A stretch of DNA of 26,214 bases from an uncultured archaeon (GCA_964632315.1 CAZWEM010000040.1:9405-35618); one strand, 5' to 3'. Positions 3,007 to 21,646 are shown, counted from the stretch's first letter. Notes: generated from the sequence alone by a model not told the origin. Program-made: numbers and translations.

Positions 3007-4068
3007 TTAAGCAATATCAATTTCTTTGCATAAATAAACGTCTTGCACTGCATTTAAGATTTTAATACCGTCTGGAGTTGGCTTTTTAAAGGCTTTTCTA
3101 CCGAGAATTAAACCTGTTCCACCAGATCGTTTATTGATCACGGCTGCTTTTACTGCGTCTTGAAGATCATTTCCACCAGATTCTCCTCCCGAATTAATGA
3201 GTCCAACTCTACCCATATAACAATTTGCCACCTGATATCGATTCCATTCTAAGGGATGATCAGTTGCCAATTTATCATATACTAATTTATCGGTTTTTCC
3301 AAAGTTCAAATCTAAGAAGCCTCTACTAAGTGTTGATATTTTTTGTTTTACAATATCAGCTTCAATGGTGACTCCCAGATGATTAGCTTGACTCTCCAAA
3401 TCATTGGCTGTATGATAATCTTTACCACCACGTACGAATTCATCCTGATTTCTTAAATAACACCATAAAACACATACTAAACCTAATTCATGAGCAAATC
3501 TAAAGGCTTCTGAAGTTTCTTTTATTTGTCGTCTAGATTCTTGCGAACCGAAATATATCGTGGAACCAACTGCGGCAGCACCCATTTCGAATGCTTGTTC
3601 AACACTCGCAAACATCGTTTGATCAGAAAGAGGAGGTTTAGTGAGAAGTTCATTATGATTTAATTTTACAATAAAAGGTAGTTTCCTCGCATATCTTCTA
3701 CTCATTGACCCAAGCACACCTAAAGTGGATGCTAATCCATTACATCCCCCATCTATAGCTAATTTAATGATGTTTTCAGGATCAAAATAACTGGGGTTTT
3801 TAGCAAAACTTGCTGATGCACTATGTTCAATACCTTGATCAACTGGCAAAATTGAGACGTAACCAGTTCCAGCTAATCGACCTCTTTGGTTAAAAAGGCG
3901 ATGCATATTATTTAAGACCATATTGTTGCGATCACTATGCTCCATAGTCCGCTCGATGAAATCTGGTCCAGGTACATGAATCATATCTTTGGGTATACCA
4001 GTACAAGTGTGATTAAGCAGATCTTCTGCTTCTTTTCCTAAAATATTTTTTATATCATTAAAATCCAT
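3007..4068 (-). CDS. fbaB: Class I fructose-bisphosphate aldolase (DhnA/FbaB type)
   Basis: [35 protein letters not shown], Schiff-base Lys in [26 protein letters not shown]. Start placed at ATG 4068 (MDFNDIK) rather than the ORF-track start 4134. Confidence 0.95.
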
Positions 4069-4211
4069 GTGATACTTTATTCGTTCTTTGGTTATAACTA
4101 TGATGCTTAAAATTTTTATGAAATATAGTCTCAAACTTTTTTGCTCATTTTACAATAGCTTAATCAGAATTTAAGTAATTTACAAATATTAATTTGCGAA
4201 AGTGAAAAATA

Positions 4212-11568: not shown

Positions 11569-13803
11569 ATGAAAATTGATGCGTCTTACTTTCCAGAGAT
11601 CAAAACTGATTTAGATGGCTTGGAAAAAATTTTAATTAATAGGATGTTTGAGGAGTCCAAGGCATATCATAGTTGGAGAACACAATTTGTCGAAATTTAC
11701 GACGAATCTAGCATGGAAATACGATTATTTTTACTTTTTTCTCTTGTTTATTTCATTGGATGGAAAACATTCTTTAATGTTATTGATGGATATGACTTTT
11801 TTTATAAAAGTTCAAAAGATCTAAACGATTTAGTAAACAGAATTCATCAAATGAATGATAAATTTTCACTCCCCTTTTTCAACGAACTCATTAACGTGTT
11901 TGCAAGAGATGAAAAATCAAAATATAAACAATTAATGGATAAAATATTTCCAACAGCCAAAACTCCACTTGATACATATTTTGATGAATTAGTCAAAACA
12001 CTTATATCTCCAGTTATTAGGCATAAATCAGGCGAATTTTATACTCCTTCCTTTTTAGTTAAGAAAATGATTGATAAAGCATATATTTTCGGAGAAACGG
12101 TTGTTGACCCTAGTTGTGGAACAGGAAATTTTCTTTTAGAAATTATTAAAAAGGTAATTCACTCTGATAAAAGCCAAAATTCTAAATTTGAAGCAATATC
12201 TAATATTCATGGTTTTGATATCAATCCTGTTTCACTTATTCTTGCGAGAGTAAACCTTTTGGAGGCAAGTGGAAATTATCATGTAGATCTAAAAGACAAT
12301 TTGAAAATAGTGGATTCTCTTTTTTTTGAAAAGGACGAGTTTAAACAAAAATTTGAATTAGTAATTGGTAATCCCCCTTGGTATACTCTTCGCGATATTT
12401 ATTCGCCCCAATATCAAGAAAAAGTGAAAAAGCTTGCGGAAAAATTGGATATCAAACCTTTACCAAAAAATATTTTAAATATAGAGATCGCATCAGTCTT
12501 CTTTTATAAAACTAAAGAGACTCTAATGAGAGAAAACTCAAAAATCTTTTTCGTTTTACCACGAGGAGTTTTAACTGGTTCTCATGCTTCAAGATTTCGT
12601 AATTTTGATGGATTTAGAAATATCTTAATTTGGAACTTTGATGATTCAGTGATGAAGACTTTCAATATTGATTTTATCTGTCTCTATGGAGAAAAAGATT
12701 CAAAATTATCTGATCCACTAAAGTTGAGGAAAGTTGAAGTTCCAGAAATTACGTGGAAATTTAAGAAAGAGAAAACTAAAAGTCTATATTCTGATGATAT
12801 GAGATTAATCGTATCGAAAAAAGATTTTCTTCTACCTTATTCAAAATTCATCAAAAATAGCAGAGCTTATACTCAGAAGTTTATCTCAAAAGATAAAATT
12901 AAGCATCTTATTCCCTCTGGAGAGAGTGCTTATAAAAAATTGTTCCATAAGGGAGCAGATTTAAATCCAAGGAACCTTATATTTGTAAAAGTCAAAAATG
13001 TTGATAATGAGAATGCAATAATTAATCCAGATGAGAGAATTTTTAAAAGAGCAAAAGCACCATGGAATGAAATTATTTTCACGGAACAAATCGTAAATAA
13101 ACGTTATATCTTTAATGCTATAAAAAGTACGGAACTCGTCTCATTTAACTTATTTTCGCATTATTCCGTTTTCCTACCCCTCAATAAAAATAATCTTGAG
13201 TTTGATTTTGAGGCTCTAGACCAGAATTCAAGACGCTTTTATAATCTCATTAATGGTTATTACCTTAATCATAAAAAGAAGAGTACCAAAATGACATCCC
13301 TTCTTGAAAATTTAAACCATTGGCAGAAATTGATCACTGAACGTCAACTTTCCAGGATCAAGGTTGTCTATAATAATTCAGGATCGATATTGACCTCCGC
13401 AGTAATAATTGATAATTATTTAGTTACAGGAGACTTAAGTTTTTTCGATACTAATGACATCAATGAAGCGTACTACCTTTCAGCGATTTTGAATTCTAAA
13501 GTAATGAATGAACAAATACGAATTAAGAAGAGTTCACGACATATTTTCAAAATTCCACTAGGCATCCCTATTCCACCTTATAATAAGAAGGACAAAATTC
13601 ATTTAGACCTCGCAAATTTAGGAAAAATTGGGCATCAAAAGGCAAAAAAAATCGTGGAAAGCACTTTAAATAAAAATCCACGCACTTCAAAGTTTAAGTT
13701 ACAGAAAATATTAGAAAAAAAGTTAAAATCTATTTTTACTGAGATAGATGAGAAATTATACTTATTATTTGACCTAAAGAATAATTTGGAAATATTACAT
13801 TAA
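11569..13803 (+). CDS. N6-adenine/N4-cytosine DNA methyltransferase (gamma motif order) with C-terminal target-recognition region
   Basis: GEFYTP (motif X), VVDPSCGTGNFL (motif I), GFDINP, VIGNPPW (motif IV), EAYYLSAILNS and HIFKIP.IP TRD-like C-terminus. Confidence 0.9.
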   Translation: MKIDASYFPEIKTDLDGLEKILINRMFEESKAYHSWRTQFVEIYDESSMEIRLFLLFSLVYFIGWKTFFNVIDGYDFFYKSSKDLNDLVNRIHQMNDKFSLPFFNELINVFARDEKSKYKQLMDKIFPTAKTPLDTYFDELVKTLISPVIRHKSGEFYTPSFLVKKMIDKAYIFGETVVDPSCGTGNFLLEIIKKVIHSDKSQNSKFEAISNIHGFDINPVSLILARVNLLEASGNYHVDLKDNLKIVDSLFFEKDEFKQKFELVIGNPPWYTLRDIYSPQYQEKVKKLAEKLDIKPLPKNILNIEIASVFFYKTKETLMRENSKIFFVLPRGVLTGSHASRFRNFDGFRNILIWNFDDSVMKTFNIDFICLYGEKDSKLSDPLKLRKVEVPEITWKFKKEKTKSLYSDDMRLIVSKKDFLLPYSKFIKNSRAYTQKFISKDKIKHLIPSGESAYKKLFHKGADLNPRNLIFVKVKNVDNENAIINPDERIFKRAKAPWNEIIFTEQIVNKRYIFNAIKSTELVSFNLFSHYSVFLPLNKNNLEFDFEALDQNSRRFYNLINGYYLNHKKKSTKMTSLLENLNHWQKLITERQLSRIKVVYNNSGSILTSAVIIDNYLVTGDLSFFDTNDINEAYYLSAILNSKVMNEQIRIKKSSRHIFKIPLGIPIPPYNKKDKIHLDLANLGKIGHQKAKKIVESTLNKNPRTSKFKLQKILEKKLKSIFTEIDEKLYLLFDLKNNLEILH

Positions 13804-13875
13804 ATTATATTAATTCATATTTCTATTACTTATTAAATACTAAATAAGTGAACCTCTGAGCATCAAACTGAACTC

Positions 13876-14400
13876 ATGAAGAATTTCGTTTTCAAGATCC
13901 TCGTTGCTGGCAATGGTGGCGTTGGAAAAACCACTCTTTTACGCCGTTATGTAGATGGAGTTTTCGATGATTCTACGATTGAAACAGTGGGAGTTGATTT
14001 TTTCATTAAAGAAGTATTTATTGAAGATATTAATGCCCACTGCACCCTTCAACTATGGGATTTGGGTGGTCAAGACCGATTTCGATACATGCTGGAAAAT
14101 TTTGTCATGGGTGCTCGTGGGGCACTTTTGTTGTTCGACATGACCAAGATGTCTATAATAACTGAGATTTTGGAATGGGTCAACATCGTTCGAATTCACG
14201 ATTTTGACTTACCAATTCTCTTGGTGGGGACCAAATTAGATCTTGAAGACGCAATATCTGTTGATAAAGAAACAGCGCTAAATGTCAGGAATACCTTCAA
14301 CATGATTGACTACATACAAACATCCTCAAAAACGGGGCATAATGTAAGTGAGGTATTTGTTCGAATCATTAAATACATCATCATGAAAAGTAAATATTAG
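13876..14400 (+). CDS. Rab-like small GTPase (Ras superfamily)
   Basis: G1 GNGGVGKTT, G2/RabF1-like TVGVDF, G3 LQLWDLGGQDRFR, G4 TKLD, G5 TSSKTG; no C-terminal Cys. Confidence 0.95.
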   Translation: MKNFVFKILVAGNGGVGKTTLLRRYVDGVFDDSTIETVGVDFFIKEVFIEDINAHCTLQLWDLGGQDRFRYMLENFVMGARGALLLFDMTKMSIITEILEWVNIVRIHDFDLPILLVGTKLDLEDAISVDKETALNVRNTFNMIDYIQTSSKTGHNVSEVFVRIIKYIIMKSKY

Positions 14401-14452
14401 GTTCGAAATTTAATTAAATATAATAATAATTACGATAAATTCCTTTTCTACT

Positions 14453-15259
14453 ATGGATGATGAATTAGTTTTTTTAGGTTCGGGGGGAGGTCGCCATCAC
14501 ATCAGGACTCAATATAGAGCAACTGGAGGTATCTTGTATAAGTTTAATGGAATTCAAGCTCACATAGATCCTGGCCCAGGAGCGATAGTCAGACTTAATC
14601 AATATGGCGAAGACCCAACGAAAACAGAACTTTTTATCGTGACTCATGCGCATCTGGATCATTATAACGATCTTAGTGCAGTAATTGAGAGTTCAAGAGA
14701 AAATTTACATGATAAGCAATACAATTATTATAAGAAAGGAACTTTAATAACCAATAAAGATGTCTTACAACTCGTTTCTGATTATCACATTAACATGCTC
14801 GAGAAAGTGGTATTATTTCGATCTGGAGAAACATATAAATATAATGGCGTGGATCTAATAGGAACCAAAGTTGTTCATTCTCGAAATACAGAAGGATTTG
14901 GAATAAGGTTAAATCTTAGGGATTACTCCATTGCTTTCTCCAGCGATACAATGGTATTCGATGGGTTTAGTGAACAGTTTTCAGATGTGGATATCTTAAT
15001 ATTAAATTTATTGAGACCTGATTCAGTCACCTGCAAGCGACACCTTTGCACTGATGAAGTGATTCCATATCTCAATGAGATTAATCCTCCTTTAAAGGGA
15101 TTAATAATTACACACTTTGGAGCTTATATGGATAGTGATAGATCAATTCAAAATTATGTACCACTTCAGATAAAAAAATTCAAAATAAAAACAAAAATTA
15201 AGCGAGTTATCGCTACTCAAGATGGAATGAAAATTAAGATTAATAAATTCCTTTACTAA
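14453..15259 (+). CDS. MBL-fold metallo-hydrolase
   Basis: FLGSGGGR, IDPGPG, THAHLDH (HxHxDH), SSDT, ITHFG. Confidence 0.9.
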   Translation: MDDELVFLGSGGGRHHIRTQYRATGGILYKFNGIQAHIDPGPGAIVRLNQYGEDPTKTELFIVTHAHLDHYNDLSAVIESSRENLHDKQYNYYKKGTLITNKDVLQLVSDYHINMLEKVVLFRSGETYKYNGVDLIGTKVVHSRNTEGFGIRLNLRDYSIAFSSDTMVFDGFSEQFSDVDILILNLLRPDSVTCKRHLCTDEVIPYLNEINPPLKGLIITHFGAYMDSDRSIQNYVPLQIKKFKIKTKIKRVIATQDGMKIKINKFLY

Positions 15260-15292: not shown

Positions 15293-17461
15293 TTAGCAAT
15301 AATACTTATGGCCAAAACGATGAAAGTGGACTTTACTTAAGGCAAAGCTATAATCTGCAGCTCCAAGATCTATCATAGGACTGACGATTACATAAGTATT
15401 TACCCATTTACTTCCATATAAGAATGAAAATCCCGTTTCAGTTGCATCTCTTAGCCACATATCAAATACTACGTAATAGCTATGTCCTCTCCAACCTCGC
15501 ATCTCTTGAACTACGGTAACCATAAAATCTACTTCAGGATAAACGTGGTTTAAACTTTCAACATAGTCTTGTCCAGAAACATCTACATTAAACAGGTACC
15601 ACCCTTCATAGGTTGTAGCCCAATCAGTAACGTATCTGAATCCAAGATATACATTATCACCAGCATAAGCCGATAAATCAAATGTAATATTTACTATGTC
15701 TCCACTCCAAACAGTAAGACCAGGAAGATTATCCACAGCAGTTGAGATGGCAGCAGGATCATGGAAAGATGTCGTATTTGCGTTTGATAATGAGGTCCAA
15801 TCAGAATCCCATTTCCCATCAGTTGAGACTTGAACAAAACCAAAATCCCAGTAATCTTCAATATCCCAATAAGTTGTTAGTGTTAAATAAGGATCCGTTG
15901 GATCAACATAAATTTCCGTAGCGATTAGAGTATTCAATAGATCAGCAGCTCCAGAATACCAATACATTTCAGTATCATTATAACTCCATCCTTCAGTTGG
16001 AACATCATCTTGTCCATCAAGAAATAGGGTTTCTAATCCTTTTAAGTTAGCGAAATTGATGTAATCAGAACCATAAGCCCCAACGTCATAAATACCTGTT
16101 GAATATTGAGTATCACCCGGAGCTGTCGTTCCCGCCATTGTTTCACCAAAGAACTTAGATGCGGATTTCCAATTAAGTTGTCTTGCATTAATCTCATGCA
16201 CATTCAAGGGCTCAAGTTCATCAAAATTCAATATTGCTTTAGGATTGATGGCTTGGATTTCATCAAGCTGATATCCATACTTGCCATATTTCGCGTGGAT
16301 GAGATTTGCAATCCTCCAATCATGGAATACTTTGTTGAAATCTTTCCCATAAGGAGCTAATAAAGCGTTTATACCTTCTGTTCCTGCTAAGCCTCCTTGG
16401 GTATAAGCTCCCATAAAGTCAATGCCATAATGATCAGTTAGGTATAATGCCCATAGGAATGAAGCGCCATAATCAGCTAATATGTTGATACCACCTTGAT
16501 CTCCCCATTGGGTCAAGGAGTTATCCGGAGTAGCTAAAAACCATTCGATTTGACCAGCATCAAGATCATAACCACAGAGAGGCTCTGCAAATAATGAACT
16601 AGCTTCATTCATGTATGTAGCATCTCCAGGTAATTGGTCTCCATGAATATTATGCTGATATTCGTGAGCCACAGTCGATTCATATAAATTAGGCCTAGTA
16701 ACAGTTAATTCAGGGTGAGTATCTGGGAACCATTGGTGTCCCTCCTCTCCTATTCGTTGCCACCATCTCCAAGCATCTATATGGATCATATTACGATGAT
16801 ACCAATCTATCGTCTGTTGAGGACTAAAAAAACCAGCAACATAAGAAGGGTATGTAGGATCGTCGTAATTATCATCCACAATGTTCAATACTTTCAAAAT
16901 GACCTTTTGCCCATTAGTAACATTAATCCAATCGTATGTAAACGCTGGAAAGCCACTTAGTTCAAAGATGGTATTTAATCCATATCGATCTTGGGTAGTA
17001 CCATAATAACCAGAATCAATGGCATAGATGATATCGTTAAACTCTTTAGCCAAGTATTTGCACATATCATCCGTGATAATTAAGTTGAGGGGATCATCAT
17101 TTCTTGGATCACCGTCAGGGAAAGCTAAATCATTTGCGACATACACTTGCACAAATTCTTCTTCAGCTCGCAGGGTCATATATGGATCAAAACCTTGCGA
17201 ATATAGATAGTAATCCCACACCATTCCCCCTACAGGAGTGAGTGATGCATGAGGCTTACTTGAAGAACTTTTAAGTGATAAATCAGCATCAAAATCAGGC
17301 ATTGCGACATCTCCAGCAAGACCACTTTGCCAATCTACTGCCTGATAATCAGGAAGTGTAGTTACTGTATCGGCACTGGTGTTAACTATGAAGATGCTTA
17401 ATGGAAAAGATGATAAGCACATTGCTATTAAAATTATTAGAGAAGTTCTTGTTTTTCTCAT
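15293..17461 (-). CDS. Secreted zinc metallopeptidase (M30/M6-like) with immune-inhibitor-A-like C-terminal beta domain
   Basis: Signal peptide MRKTRTSLIILIAMCL...TSA; AHEYQH (HExxH) followed by YMNEAS; DNSLTQW, DYGASFLWALYL; YWDIEDYWDFGFVQVSTDG and FDLSAYAG...GFRYVTD. Start is ATG 17461 or TTG 17470. Confidence 0.85.
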   Translation of the reverse strand: MRKTRTSLIILIAMCLSSFPLSIFIVNTSADTVTTLPDYQAVDWQSGLAGDVAMPDFDADLSLKSSSSKPHASLTPVGGMVWDYYLYSQGFDPYMTLRAEEEFVQVYVANDLAFPDGDPRNDDPLNLIITDDMCKYLAKEFNDIIYAIDSGYYGTTQDRYGLNTIFELSGFPAFTYDWINVTNGQKVILKVLNIVDDNYDDPTYPSYVAGFFSPQQTIDWYHRNMIHIDAWRWWQRIGEEGHQWFPDTHPELTVTRPNLYESTVAHEYQHNIHGDQLPGDATYMNEASSLFAEPLCGYDLDAGQIEWFLATPDNSLTQWGDQGGINILADYGASFLWALYLTDHYGIDFMGAYTQGGLAGTEGINALLAPYGKDFNKVFHDWRIANLIHAKYGKYGYQLDEIQAINPKAILNFDELEPLNVHEINARQLNWKSASKFFGETMAGTTAPGDTQYSTGIYDVGAYGSDYINFANLKGLETLFLDGQDDVPTEGWSYNDTEMYWYSGAADLLNTLIATEIYVDPTDPYLTLTTYWDIEDYWDFGFVQVSTDGKWDSDWTSLSNANTTSFHDPAAISTAVDNLPGLTVWSGDIVNITFDLSAYAGDNVYLGFRYVTDWATTYEGWYLFNVDVSGQDYVESLNHVYPEVDFMVTVVQEMRGWRGHSYYVVFDMWLRDATETGFSFLYGSKWVNTYVIVSPMIDLGAADYSFALSKVHFHRFGHKYYC

Positions 17462-17878
17462 ATTTTTCAACTATTTATAGGTTTATTTTTTAATAAAATC
17501 GTCTATGTTATAACGTAACATAAACTTTACATCCAATACTCATAATTAAACCATTCTTAGATATAAATTTGAAAATTATATCATTTAGGATTATGAGTAT
17601 TTGTAAGGTAATCAAGATTTTATATTTAAAATTTATGATTTTAACGTGTAAGTGAAACCCATCACTATCGCTATCTTTTTTATCTTGTGTGAAAAAATTG
17701 GGAAAATAGTGCAAAAAATCATTTATTGTGTGCGTAAAAATCGAATTCACAATTAAGTATAATGGGATTTCATCATTCTCAATTGACTTTTATGTCTGAT
17801 CTTATAATCTACATTTATGTATAATGTAGAAAGGTAAAGGGATCATATCAGAGCTAAACATTAAGATAAGAGTAATAA

Positions 17879-17970
17879 TAAAGAGGGAGGGCGTAATCTG
17901 AGCCCTAAAAATAAAATAAGTTTTCTACTTTGAAATTAACTTGAAAAGAATATAATTGTTTCCTTTTTAC
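17879..17970. other. Conserved non-coding element, copy A (regulatory DNA or structured RNA)
   Basis: 17881-17913 matches 21363-21395 at 26/33 positions ungapped. 17879-17889 can pair with 17959-17969 (11 bp including G-U on the + strand). Confidence 0.6.
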
Positions 17971-18231
17971 TGTATTAACTATTAATTTAAACAAGGGTAT
18001 TAAATATAAGTAATTCTATTAAAAATTGAATCTCAATGTACAGTTTTGTGAACGATTTTACTATAACTTTCTTAAAAAGTCAAATCTGATATTGAGTGAG
18101 ATAATCAAGTAAAAATTATATAAAATTAGCTTCAGAACAGTTTTTTATTTTAATTGGTTTAAAACTAATCGGTGTTTGTTTTTTAATAATCGCACAAAAA
18201 TGAGAAAATAAAAAAAATTGGTTTTAATTTA

Positions 18232-20886
18232 TTATAATTTGACAATATCACCTATATACCAATAATCCCAGTAATCTGTTTTAGAGTGTAACCAAAGAAC
18301 TGCTAATCCTTTCTTACGATTGGGCAATTTAACACATGTAAACCATGAATCAAGAGTAAAGATTTTTGAATGCCAATTTCCCATTATATTAGAGAAATAT
18401 GTGATTTCAAGCGAATAGCATTCGGATTTACCGAAATATATTTGATATCCATCAATCATGATTAGATATTCACCCGGTTCAGTTATCTGAACAAACTCAG
18501 GAGAAGAGCCAGTAGCTCCATCAACATTCACCGAACCATTAGGGTAGAAGACTATCATATCAAGATCACTTGTAGCCCATTTAGTCCAGTCACGATACCA
18601 TGAAAGTTCAAGGATTGCTAATTGATCATGACCTAAATCGGGAATCGTAAAAGAGTAAAAATCCGACTCTCCTTCTTTGATGTATCCATGTTCTTGTGTT
18701 ATATCTCCTTTAAACAATTCCACTTGAGCCTCCTTTACATCAACTCCACTATTAAGAATTCCCAGATATTTACCAAATTTTAAGGCTTGTGTATTAACTA
18801 TCTCAATTGTCATCTTTTCGATGTGAATTGGACTATAAGAACTGAAGTCGCCTGCGAGTACTAAACGCTGAACTCCTGGTTGAAAATGAGAATCTGAGGA
18901 AATTTCATATTCCATTTCATTATAATAATAGAAATATTCCCTCCAATAGAAGTAATCATCAATGCCTTCTCTAGCAGCACTACTAAGATAAAGTGCTCCT
19001 GCGTCATAAACAAATAGTTCATTTTGTTCCTCACCGTATGAAATATCTGAAAGCGTGATTCTTACGGAATCTACTTCTTTACTAACCCAGAAATTAAAGT
19101 ATTTGAACATCCCTGGATTTAAGGTGATATCATAAACTTTGGCAATGCCATTATGGAACTTAAGAGTTTCTATTGGTGGGAACCACCAAGAACCCAAATG
19201 ATGATTCCAATTCCACTGGCATCCGCAATGATGATTCCATTTCCATTTACATCCATGATGATGAGAATCGATGACTTTTTGTTCTTCAACCATAGCTTTA
19301 ACAATTTCTAATGAATTAACACAATTAATATAACCGGCTCCTTGTTCGAAATCTTGGTATCCTTCTATTGGTATGGCTCCTTCCATAATAGATTTTTTGA
19401 TATCCGATGGCTCAAGACCTACACCTTCTGATTTAGCATAATTAATTAGTAGTGCAGCTTCCCCTGCAACTTGAGGACAAGAAAATGAAGTACCAGAACC
19501 TAGAGCTATTGTATATGGCCATTCTGAAGGAGGATACCCAAAAAAAGTCCAAGATCCCGTGGCAACAACATCAGGTTTGTTCCGCCCATCTGAAGTTGGT
19601 CCTCTAGAACTAAAGTCAATAATATAGTTTTGATCACTGGGATAATAATACCGTCCAACGCCAGGACCATATGCTATATCTCCATATACTCGTTCATGAA
19701 TAGGATCTTGGGCAGCACCGACTGTTATAGCACTTTCAGCAGTACCTGGTGATCCCACCTTAAGTAATGATGGTCCCTCATTTCCCGCTGAAACAACTAC
19801 AGTGATTCCAGCCTCAGAAGCAGCATCAACCAAGAGATCCGATGGATCTTCTCCTGGTGCTCCCACACCACCCCCAAGACTCATACTAATGACATCTACA
19901 CCTGCATTAATGGCAGCATCTATACCTTCCATAATAATCGAAGATGGAACAGCAGCTCCAGTATGATCAAATACTTTTACTGCATAAATTGAGGCAAATG
20001 GGGCAATACCATAACATGGCACGATGGTCTGATTATTCTCCTGATCAATTGAAACACCATCAACGTAATTTGCTATAGCAGCACCCCAGGGGTGAGGTGA
20101 ATAAGGAGGCAGAGTACTGTTATAGAATTTTAGATATGTATTAGCAGCTAAAAGTGTAGCACAAGCTGTTCCATGATAATAATTAAGTGGATTACCATAT
20201 CCTCCATACATGGAATTCCCAGCATCATAACTCAGATCAACACCATCATAAACTGCACCCCAATACCAAGGTGAATGTGGATTACCAGAGGGATCAATCC
20301 AAGTTTCATTCCAGCATCCCGAATCTATGATTGCAACCTTGGCACCATATCCATAAAGCGTTTCTTCCCAAATAGCGTTTGCATCTGTAAGATAAAAGTT
20401 TGAAAAGGTTGCAGGATATTCCTCCATCTCTTCAATATTTAATGGCACTGCTTCAATTCTTCCATCAGTCATGAGTAAATGTGTATCAATTTCTCCTTTG
20501 GCAATATTCATCTCTCTAATCTCATCTTTAAATATCTTTGAAATTAATGGACTGTTAGCTAAAGTGAATAAGTTACAAGCTGGAATCTCAACTGAGACTC
20601 CATTAATATTGTTATATTCAATATTAACAGTCCCACCTAAGGATTGTACTAATTTTGTTACTAACTCATAATCATGTGTTGTAGTTTCAACTATAACTGA
20701 AACTTTTGAGTTTGTATTATCGATTAGTCCTTTAGCATTAGATGTTAACTTATTAAAAGAATTTGATTTTTGTTTAGTTAATTCAAGAGGTTCAATTTTG
20801 CTATTTGGTGCAGCCATAGCTGGTACCATAAATAGACTAAATAGTGTAATTGCTACAAGTAGATATAGAATTTTATTTTTTTTCAT
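18232..20886 (-). CDS. Secreted subtilisin-like S8 serine protease with I9-type prodomain and C-terminal PPC-like domain(s)
   Basis: Signal peptide ending AMA; catalytic Asp in AIIDSG, His in HGTACA, oxyanion Asn in SAGNEG, Ser in GTSFSCP; FSSRGP; DLDMIVFYPNG...PGEYLI. Confidence 0.95.
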   Translation of the reverse strand: MKKNKILYLLVAITLFSLFMVPAMAAPNSKIEPLELTKQKSNSFNKLTSNAKGLIDNTNSKVSVIVETTTHDYELVTKLVQSLGGTVNIEYNNINGVSVEIPACNLFTLANSPLISKIFKDEIREMNIAKGEIDTHLLMTDGRIEAVPLNIEEMEEYPATFSNFYLTDANAIWEETLYGYGAKVAIIDSGCWNETWIDPSGNPHSPWYWGAVYDGVDLSYDAGNSMYGGYGNPLNYYHGTACATLLAANTYLKFYNSTLPPYSPHPWGAAIANYVDGVSIDQENNQTIVPCYGIAPFASIYAVKVFDHTGAAVPSSIIMEGIDAAINAGVDVISMSLGGGVGAPGEDPSDLLVDAASEAGITVVVSAGNEGPSLLKVGSPGTAESAITVGAAQDPIHERVYGDIAYGPGVGRYYYPSDQNYIIDFSSRGPTSDGRNKPDVVATGSWTFFGYPPSEWPYTIALGSGTSFSCPQVAGEAALLINYAKSEGVGLEPSDIKKSIMEGAIPIEGYQDFEQGAGYINCVNSLEIVKAMVEEQKVIDSHHHGCKWKWNHHCGCQWNWNHHLGSWWFPPIETLKFHNGIAKVYDITLNPGMFKYFNFWVSKEVDSVRITLSDISYGEEQNELFVYDAGALYLSSAAREGIDDYFYWREYFYYYNEMEYEISSDSHFQPGVQRLVLAGDFSSYSPIHIEKMTIEIVNTQALKFGKYLGILNSGVDVKEAQVELFKGDITQEHGYIKEGESDFYSFTIPDLGHDQLAILELSWYRDWTKWATSDLDMIVFYPNGSVNVDGATGSSPEFVQITEPGEYLIMIDGYQIYFGKSECYSLEITYFSNIMGNWHSKIFTLDSWFTCVKLPNRKKGLAVLWLHSKTDYWDYWYIGDIVKL
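19198..19264 (-). repeat. In-frame 30-bp tandem repeat (about 2.2 units) encoding HHHGCKWKWN-HHCGCQWNWN-HH
   Basis: Units 19198-19227 and 19228-19257 are 23/30 identical and are followed by a partial third ATGATGA. Confidence 0.8.
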
Positions 20887-21010
20887 TATTTTTCTAACCT
20901 TCTTAATTTTTAATACAAAATAATTTCAAATCGAAGAAATCTGATTTGCAAAGTTAATGTTTGAATACATTGCTAATTCCGACTTCTTGAACGATTGATA
21001 AATAAGAAAT

Positions 21011-21040
21011 GGTATATATATAAAAATTACTTTTTTCACG
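21011..21040 (-). promoter_or_regulatory. Putative archaeal BRE/TATA promoter for the S8 protease
   Basis: Minus strand reads CGTGAAAAAAGTAATTTTTATATATATACC: a purine tract followed by TTTATATA, about 130 bp upstream of the ATG. The AT-rich background lowers specificity. Confidence 0.4.
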
Positions 21041-21362
21041 TAATAAAAAGAAATATCATTCATATTATTAAAGATAAGATTTATGATTAATTTCTTAATA
21101 GCTTGTGGAAAATAAAGATAGATTAAGAACTCTTGTAAAGAACCCACTTATAGTTTTTATGTATTCCAATAAAAAATCGTAATTTTGTTAACAAGAATAA
21201 TTGAAAAATATCAATAAATTATCACAAAATGTATATTGTGTGAAAAAAAGAAAGTAATTTGTATCCAAAAATATGAATTTAAGTATATTCTCAATTTTAT
21301 CTTACGGAAGAGTTAATTTACCCGAAGTCTAAATCTTAATTTAGCGCTTTATAAGAAAGGAA

Positions 21363-21483
21363 AAGAAGGGAAGCGAAATGAGAGCCCTAAAAATACAAAG
21401 AGGTAGAGAATTAAAGTCAAAGACTTTAATAGAGGGCGAAATCCAATGTTTATAGGCTCAAATTTTTAATGTTTCCCTTCTAC
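21363..21483. other. Conserved non-coding element, copy B; long imperfect inverted repeat
   Basis: AGAAGGGAA (21364-21372) and TTCCCTTCT (21473-21481) form a perfect inverted repeat; inner GAGCC/GGCTC; apical perfect hairpin ATTAAAGTC-AAA-GACTTTAAT (21410-21430). Confidence 0.65.
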
Positions 21484-21646
21484 AATAGAAGAATAGAACT
21501 TCGTCCTAATAAAATGATGTATTATAAAATAAAAGATGTTCTGATATCGAGAACAAATAAAATGAAACTTCTATTCCCTATAATTAGTATCGATCTTGAC
21601 CAAAAGGCATTTTATGACAATTCTAATGCCCAAAAGAGAGTCGAAA

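Follow-up and report, generated by a model that had tools for sequence, protein, structure and literature searches.

The C-rich-motif RNAs RsaE and RoxS of the Firmicutes are trans-acting small RNAs (sRNAs) that mask Shine-Dalgarno sequences, and trans-acting sRNAs are known in the archaea as well, in Methanosarcina. In the Asgard archaea, the closest known archaeal relatives of eukaryotes, few noncoding RNAs (ncRNAs) have to our knowledge been described beyond rRNA, tRNA, signal recognition particle and RNase P RNAs and snoRNA-like guides. Here we analyze a stretch of 26,214 nucleotides (the window, G000:C40:9405-35618) from a Promethearchaeota assembly (G000; 4.45 Mb, 33% G+C), in which two long intergenic gaps, A and B, lie upstream of genes for an M6 metallopeptidase and an S8 subtilase, respectively. 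A first-pass annotation of this DNA had pointed to four boxes that recur in the same order in both gaps and had read them as a control module shared by an exoprotease regulon, possibly a distal cis-element, a long leader RNA or an sRNA family. We find that gap B almost certainly holds a genuine gene for a structured RNA, which represents a new RNA family without an Rfam match, from one Promethearchaeota family.

The RNA resembles the C-rich-motif sRNAs in that its gene is short (~100-130 nt), carries its own predicted promoter and U-tail, and occurs as several paralogues per genome, and in that unpaired GCCCUCU and UCUCUCCCU are presented on a stable scaffold and are complementary to GGAGGG sites. 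It differs from them in that the motif sits in the large internal loop of a rod rather than in hairpin loops, in that no Rfam family resembles it by sequence or by model, and in a 24-nt invariance that extends beyond a seed. With orphan structured ncRNA motifs it shares a definition by covariation, flanking signals and a narrow taxonomic range, whereas its absence from Rfam 15, its restriction to one Promethearchaeota family and its synteny with an RNase Z-like metallo-β-lactamase (MBL) gene set it apart from those already catalogued. The Y RNAs and YrlA are also rods of ~100 nt closed by their ends, with a pyrimidine-rich internal loop, a 3' U-tail and several paralogues. In contrast to these, the present RNA gives no Rfam Y_RNA match, and the conserved bulged Ro-binding helix was not identified in it. 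The assembly, with a completeness of 99.5% and a contamination estimate of 8.6%, contains no TROVE/Ro60 gene: PF05731 finds nothing in it and detects the control genomes, and the Y RNA/YrlA assignment was rejected.

The case for the RNA was made with covariance models and comparison genomes, among which those retrieved via a neighbouring gene are metagenome-assembled genomes (MAGs) labelled Promethearchaeota or Promethearchaeia (Asgard archaea). Model R1, built from 17 same-genus orthologues with the window excluded, scores the minus strand of 21364-21485 at 81 bits (E 1e-18), and model R2, built from other genera, gives this RNA 90 bits. Its fold has a z-score of -3.2. Across the surrounding block, ~21345-21566, most same-genus genomes match at 71-79% identity (E values down to 1e-26), and a 45-nt core of the block matches several sites per genome there. 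The RNA (Table 1) is a rod of helices P1, P1b, P2 and P3 plus a large internal loop that has an invariant 5' side, ACAUUGGAUUUCGCCCUCUAUUAA, and a pyrimidine-rich 3' side, which in many copies reads UCUCUCCCU; the GCCCUCU motif and UCUCUCCCU are both unpaired in the consensus structure. In gap B, box 3 corresponds to the 3' strands of P2, P1b and P1, and box 4 to the 5' strand of P1.

The stems vary around the invariant stretch that they enclose. In the alignment of orthologues and paralogues, P3 occurs as AAACUC/GAGUUU, AAGCA/UGCUU, UACGU/ACGUA and AAAGUC/GACUUU, each with compensation, and P1 as GAAGGG/CCCUUC or GAUGGG/CCCAUC. Among 33 distinct sequences, 95% of the cells in paired columns are paired and both sides have changed in 22 of 29 pairs, a level reached by 0 of 500 shuffles; sliding the partner strand lowers pairing to ≤53%. 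An independent set of 64 sequences, anchored on the neighbouring protein gene, gives 89% paired cells, double changes in 25 of 29 pairs, slid controls at ≤57%, and 231 compensatory cells versus 69 ± 8. Pairing in these alignments is somewhat inflated because they were fitted to the model, but compensatory changes are evident in a structure-blind MAFFT alignment too. A 25-codon open reading frame (ORF) on the plus strand, starting at 21379, was rejected as a small protein, since relatives lack an ATG there; the substitutions in it track base pairing rather than codons.

The first-pass annotation could match the shared element to no RNA family, and an Rfam scan agrees. At gathering thresholds Rfam 15 has no match in the window; the best sub-threshold matches in 21250-21646 have E values of 1.7-8.4, far under the cut-offs, and 17780-18100 has none. 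A full-text literature search returned no description of such an RNA, which is weak negative evidence. Conserved C (RUGAUGA) or D (CUGA) boxes, as in box C/D sRNAs, were not found in the alignments, and with regard to box H/ACA sRNAs, neither strand has a conserved ACA after P1, nor is there a near-threshold Rfam H/ACA match. A role as an rRNA guide was rejected, as the complementarity of the core to same-genus 16S and 23S rRNA is matched by 15 of 200 and 40 of 200 shuffles. Neither a 16S nor a 23S gene was found in G000 itself when it was searched for rRNA genes, despite its 99.5% completeness.

Several signals indicate that the RNA is very probably transcribed from the minus strand. In this sense the paired columns hold 44 G-U cells versus 16 A-C cells, and the opposite strand gives the reverse, although the counts come from alignments fitted to the minus-strand model. 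A run of at least five T within 25 nt downstream is seen in 25 of 51 non-redundant copies in the minus-strand sense and in 3 of 51 on the other strand. TATA-like boxes (TTTATATA, TTTTAAAA) lie ~22-30 nt upstream of the RNA, even in paralogues whose flanks are otherwise unrelated, and the RNA shares its strand with the upstream MBL gene in 52 of 63 loci. Transcription from the plus strand of the window, giving a purine-rich version, is quite unlikely. The plus-strand fold of the G000 copy is the more stable one (-35.2 vs -27.7 kcal/mol), and tandem GA motifs flanking P3 could make a K-turn-like loop; across 34 copies, however, the lower-energy strand splits 17:17, which makes folding energy uninformative. 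A plus-strand RNA would also contain more A-C mismatches than G-U pairs, would lack both an oligo-T behind the structure and a TATA box at a suitable distance, and would oppose the upstream MBL operon in most loci. With the TATA box and oligo-T tail as gene signals, the minus-strand RNA would most likely be a gene of its own, transcribed independently.

Table 1. Features of the window discussed in the text. Positions are counted on the plus strand from the first nucleotide of the window.
Feature	Position	Strand	Basis or remark
N6-methyltransferase-like protein, 744 aa	11569-13803	+	window gene order
Ras-family small GTPase	13876-14400	+	window gene order
MBL-fold gene, RNase Z similarity sub-threshold	14453-15259	+	window gene order
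InhA-like M6 metallopeptidase	15293-17470	-	window gene order
Gap A	17471-18231		between M6 and S8 genes
Diverged promoter-like stretch upstream of M6 (CACGTTAAAATCATAAATTTTAAATATAAAA)	17600-17655	-	~22/31 positions match the module (manual count)
Boxes 1-2, gap A	17681-17784	+	counterpart of 21232-21296; 17-nt repeat at 94% identity
Putative degenerate RNA paralogue	17833-17935	-	second-best window match of R1 and R2; overlaps box 3
Box 4, gap A	17953-17970	-	could pair with 17827-17839 as outer closing stem; status uncertain
S8 subtilase	18232-20886	-	window gene order
Gap B	20887-21646		upstream of S8 gene
Promoter/leader module of the protease slot	20972-21079	-	86-193 nt upstream of S8 ATG
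Boxes 1-2, gap B	21234-21311	+	resemble degenerate inverted second module copy
Pyrimidine/U-rich tail after P1 (UUUCCUUUCUUAUAAAG), probable terminator	21345-21363	-	
Structured small RNA, intact, ~120 nt	21364-21485	-	covariance models, covariation, fold
P1 helix	21364-21373 with 21471-21481		
P2 helix	GAGCCC (21381-21386) with GGCTC (21455-21459)		
P3 hairpin	21410-21430		
Invariant core, ACAUUGGAUUUCGCCCUCUAUUAA on RNA strand	~21426-21449		
RNA upstream region, co-conserved with the RNA	21486-21566	-	TATA-like boxes ~21507-21514 and ~21520-21529
Radical-SAM activase and glycyl-radical enzyme	beyond gap B	both -	

With R1, the RNA is detected in 89 of the other 101 genomes of this Promethearchaeota family, which carry 1-7 copies each and cover 11 of its 12 genera, g14 being the exception; 19 genomes from three sister families of the order have none. 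At the main locus the RNA comes ~60-350 nt after the MBL gene, as seen in 63 of the 79 loci anchored on that gene, and the gene that it faces is convergent with it; the genes downstream vary from paralogue to paralogue. The RNA is opposite in strand to the MBL gene in 11 of the 63 loci, and the G000 copy is likewise inverted relative to most relatives. In G000 the inversion covers the RNA gene together with its promoter block, so that the RNA points at the S8 gene, 480 nt away. Copies of the RNA adjoin genes for MFS transporters, RNase Z-like MBL proteins, Ras GTPases and methyltransferases, and further paralogues adjoin aldehyde:ferredoxin oxidoreductase (AFOR), β-CASP/RMMBL nuclease, DUF4125 and methyltransferase genes. 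As a rule the neighbour is the RNase Z-like MBL gene, a transporter gene or an oxidoreductase gene. The arrangement is not that of a riboswitch or a cis-acting 5' leader: the RNA follows the MBL gene, the genes downstream vary, and an oligo-T follows.

The methyltransferase/Ras/MBL three-gene cluster (11569-15259 in the window; loci L094-L172) is conserved across many Promethearchaeota MAGs, and the RNA usually directly follows it. Its identity as a defence system was rejected, since PADLOC gives only generic methyltransferase matches. Two different MBL-fold nuclease-like proteins, the RNase Z-like and the β-CASP/RMMBL ones, are found as neighbours of the RNA, which may or may not be a coincidence.

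Short, multi-copy sequences with terminal inverted repeats bring to mind miniature inverted-repeat transposable elements (MITEs), and a mobile repeat that hit the two gaps independently, with its terminal repeats mimicking a stem, would account for the 1-7 copies per genome and for the 11 of 63 loci in which the RNA is flipped with respect to the MBL gene. The P1 arms do form a terminal inverted repeat (GAAGGGAA...TTCCCTTC), but a terminal RNA helix gives the same signal. In genus g12 (G118, G041, G079, G061; L067-L084) the RNA copies are 93-100% identical within a genome, have 150-500 nt of flank in common and are often at contig ends, which suggests recent duplication, concerted evolution or mobility. 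Nevertheless, the MITE reading is highly improbable. The place after the same MBL gene is kept across genera, in 63 of 79 loci and many MAGs, in contrast to the lack of positional conservation of a MITE; all four helices show compensatory double substitutions, and DNA repeats would not be expected to show the G-U asymmetry. Moreover, the stems vary but the single-stranded core does not, the element has a promoter and a terminator attached, and no transposase was found among the genus g1 neighbours, the set scanned against Pfam, g12 neighbours not being part of that scan. The first-pass annotation had named copies scattered regardless of downstream gene function and flanked by target-site duplications, a MITE instead, as counting against its own reading; copies beside unrelated genes are indeed seen, and the main locus is conserved in position.

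The same variety of neighbours bears on the proposed exoprotease regulon, in which boxes 1-4 would place the secreted protease genes under joint control, as a distal cis-regulatory module or as a long leader. Several relatives have an M6 or S8 gene within ~400-650 nt of the RNA, a promoter/leader module shared by both protease families precedes them in relatives, and the G000 RNA is co-directional with the S8 gene and lies 480 nt upstream of it. However, M6 or S8 genes stand between the RNA and the MBL gene in some genomes only, where the RNA is usually divergent from them, and most genomes have no protease gene adjacent to the RNA. At the 63 of 79 MBL-anchored loci with the RNA ~60-350 nt after the MBL gene there is no space for one, and other paralogues lie by AFOR, β-CASP RNase, DUF4125 and methyltransferase genes. 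Since the neighbours are varied and protease genes are adjacent in some genomes only, the RNA is not tied to proteases. A TATA box and an oligo-T terminator belong to the RNA itself, neither protease start region is a good predicted target of it (-10.3 and -5.3 kcal/mol), boxes 1-2 are missing from relatives, and the promoter module has one significant copy in G000. With copies of boxes 3 and 4 adjoining genes of unrelated function, a regulon built on these boxes is very improbable, although the sRNA family that the first-pass annotation listed among its options is strongly supported in gap B and tentatively, as a relic, in gap A.

The conserved promoter that the protease genes do share is a different, start-proximal sequence module at 20972-21079, apart from the boxes. 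Its parts are CGTGAAAAAAGTAAyTTTTATATAT, which resembles a TFB-recognition element (BRE) and TATA box, followed by TCTTAttTaTcAAT and TTCAAGAAGTC. The module is conserved in five relatives (L085:1277-1411 and 4014-4081; L021, L022, L023, L024), 70-240 nt ahead of the protease gene that fills the slot, be it M6 or S8; in G065, the closest relative found, with 79% DNA identity in the M6 gene, it precedes both genes. A profile built from six relatives has its sole significant G000 match there (E 1.3e-14) and none in gap A; the module behaves as the positional orthologue of one locus. G065 has M6 then S8, compared with S8-M6 here, which points to a shuffling of genes behind a promoter that was retained. 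Upstream of its M6 gene, in divergent orientation, is a diverged copy of the RNA (37 bits). Boxes 1-2 of gap B form inverted repeats with 21020-21045 (87-88% complementary over 15-17 nt) and are the weak second match of the module profile, on the opposite strand (E 0.78). They may be a degenerate inverted module copy left by the rearrangement that flipped the RNA gene. The first-pass annotation looked to conservation upstream of orthologues, and for boxes 1-2 this was not found: matches in relatives occur at chance frequency only.

The colinear order of the four boxes in the two gaps holds, with all eight coordinates and sequences verified, and protease gene duplication does not explain it, BLASTP finding no homology between the M6 and S8 proteins. 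A search of both strands of the 4.45-Mb genome finds exactly two copies each of the box 1 13-mer and the box 3 14-mer (TTGTGTGAAAAAA and GAGCCCTAAAAATA), all of them in gaps A and B. Single measures of the similarity are marginal. The local alignment score of 37 is equalled by 6 of 300 dinucleotide shuffles and the longest common word, of 14, by 16 of 300; box 3 by itself has a genome-wide BLAST E of 0.11. The colinear chain, in contrast, scores 153 versus 77 ± 22 for dinucleotide shuffles and is matched by 0 of 200. Gaps of at least 700 bp are scarce in G000 (88 among the 3136 gaps that separate ORFs of ≥100 aa). In 178 comparisons with real long gaps of the genome, the A-B chain is the reciprocal best, with runners-up at 135-141. 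Two colinear exact 13-mers that are not AT-only occur in 10 of 7310 (0.14%) comparisons of long-gap pairs and orientations, A-B included. We conclude that the A-B similarity is real, at roughly p = 0.001-0.007.

Box 3 stands at its coordinates, but probably not in the register in which it was aligned. The two covariance models align box 3 of gap A to the invariant core and the 5' P2 strand of the RNA, at an offset of ~3545, rather than to the 3' strands at an offset of 3482. The value of ~3545 fits the offsets of boxes 1, 2 and 4 (3512-3551) better, and the 3482 register is probably non-homologous; it seems to arise from a likeness within the RNA, that of the core to the 3' strand of P1b/P1.

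In the model register, gap A contains what is on balance a decayed duplicate of the RNA. R1 scores it at 19.2 bits (E 0.0095) and R2 at 18.7 bits (E 0.046), and a 268-kb search has one other non-family match at 19 bits or more. Its core, GAUUACGCCCUCC, is aligned by the models to the invariant GGAUUUCGCCCUCU; an 8-bp P2 (UUAGGGCU/AGCUCUGA) and a P1 3' strand, CCCUUU, are present, P3 is missing, and the closing stem that box 4 could provide is present in the minimum-energy fold. Diverged paralogues elsewhere in G000, one without P3 (C16:31976-32068, 26.8 bits) and one with the core variant GAUUAAGCCCUCU (C12:76870-76929, 31.8 bits), count in favour of this assignment. A chance likeness between two AT-rich gaps, with the real element in gap B alone, would fit the marginal single measures, a chain score only ~10% above the next-best real pairs, the weak profile and model evidence for the gap A copy, and the lack of its conservation in relatives. 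Chance is nonetheless unlikely, given two colinear genome-unique words of 13-14 nt, a configuration found in 0.14% of real long-gap comparisons, and a chain score that 0 of 200 shuffles reach; in addition, models that do not include the gap B copy of G000 put their best non-self window match on box 3, on the same strand.

An 80-aa ORF in gap A (17508-17750) was rejected as a small protein, as no homologue was found at the same place in the closest relative. The S8 gene contains a 30-bp tandem duplication (19197-19256, 80% identity).

Taken together, these observations are probably best explained if the two gaps are paralogous remnants of a duplication whose core is an independently transcribed structured sRNA gene. 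An intergenic segment would have been duplicated within the genome, giving rise to the two upstream regions, and its functional core would be the ~120-nt sRNA gene, of which the gap B copy is intact and the gap A copy has decayed or strongly diverged, with loss of the P3 hairpin. Boxes 1-2 would then be a lineage-specific flank, possibly the degenerate inverted copy of the protease promoter. In its family the RNA normally lies just downstream of the methyltransferase/Ras-GTPase/RNase Z-like MBL cluster, with paralogues elsewhere, and protease genes would have been inserted beside the RNA in some lineages. Several points weigh against parts of this explanation. The gap A score of 19 bits would lack genome-wide significance, its fold is no better than shuffles (z -0.9, compared with -3.2 in gap B), a sequence-only profile built without G000 misses it, and conservation sought in relatives was not found. 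Two registers of A-B homology are possible, the strand assignment of the RNA rests on sequence signals, and the near-identical contig-end copies of genus g12 may reflect some mobility or concerted evolution.

With regard to function, the RNA may act in trans, its exposed CCCUC loop either pairing with purine-rich GGAGGG ribosome-binding sites of target mRNAs (GGAGGGCG) or binding a protein. The invariant loop is predicted to form duplexes of ≤-14 kcal/mol with 296 of 3914 start regions, versus 87-155 for five shuffles, a 2-3-fold excess, though such enrichment over shuffles is expected of any CCCUC word; the top predicted targets carry GGAGGG(C/T) 5-12 nt before the start codon. The 24-nt invariance far exceeds the needs of a pairing seed, and it therefore points at least equally to a role in protein binding or tertiary structure. 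A trans-acting regulator that pairs with ribosome-binding sites is the best guess, to be held tentatively, and a protein-bound scaffold is only slightly less likely; what remains falls to an element at the 3' end of the MBL cluster or to a mobile repeat.

For the interpretation of such genomes, the locus is a caution that boxes common to long AT-rich upstream regions can turn out to be RNA genes that escaped annotation, or relics of these, and not operators. An RNA with very strong covariation, found in roughly nine-tenths of one family's genomes, with several paralogues and a 24-nt core that is invariant across genera, is a concrete candidate for experiments; the cultured relatives Promethearchaeum and Lokiarchaeum could be used if the RNA is present in them, or else metatranscriptomics. 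It is conceivable, if rather unlikely, that this lineage-defining multi-copy RNA is the RNA part of a new ribonucleoprotein or a global translational regulator, genomically coupled to an RNase Z-like nuclease/Ras-family GTPase/methyltransferase cluster and with its gene inverted in place in a minority of lineages. If that were true, the 24-nt invariant loop of this Promethearchaeota RNA would be a protein- or ribosome-binding site.

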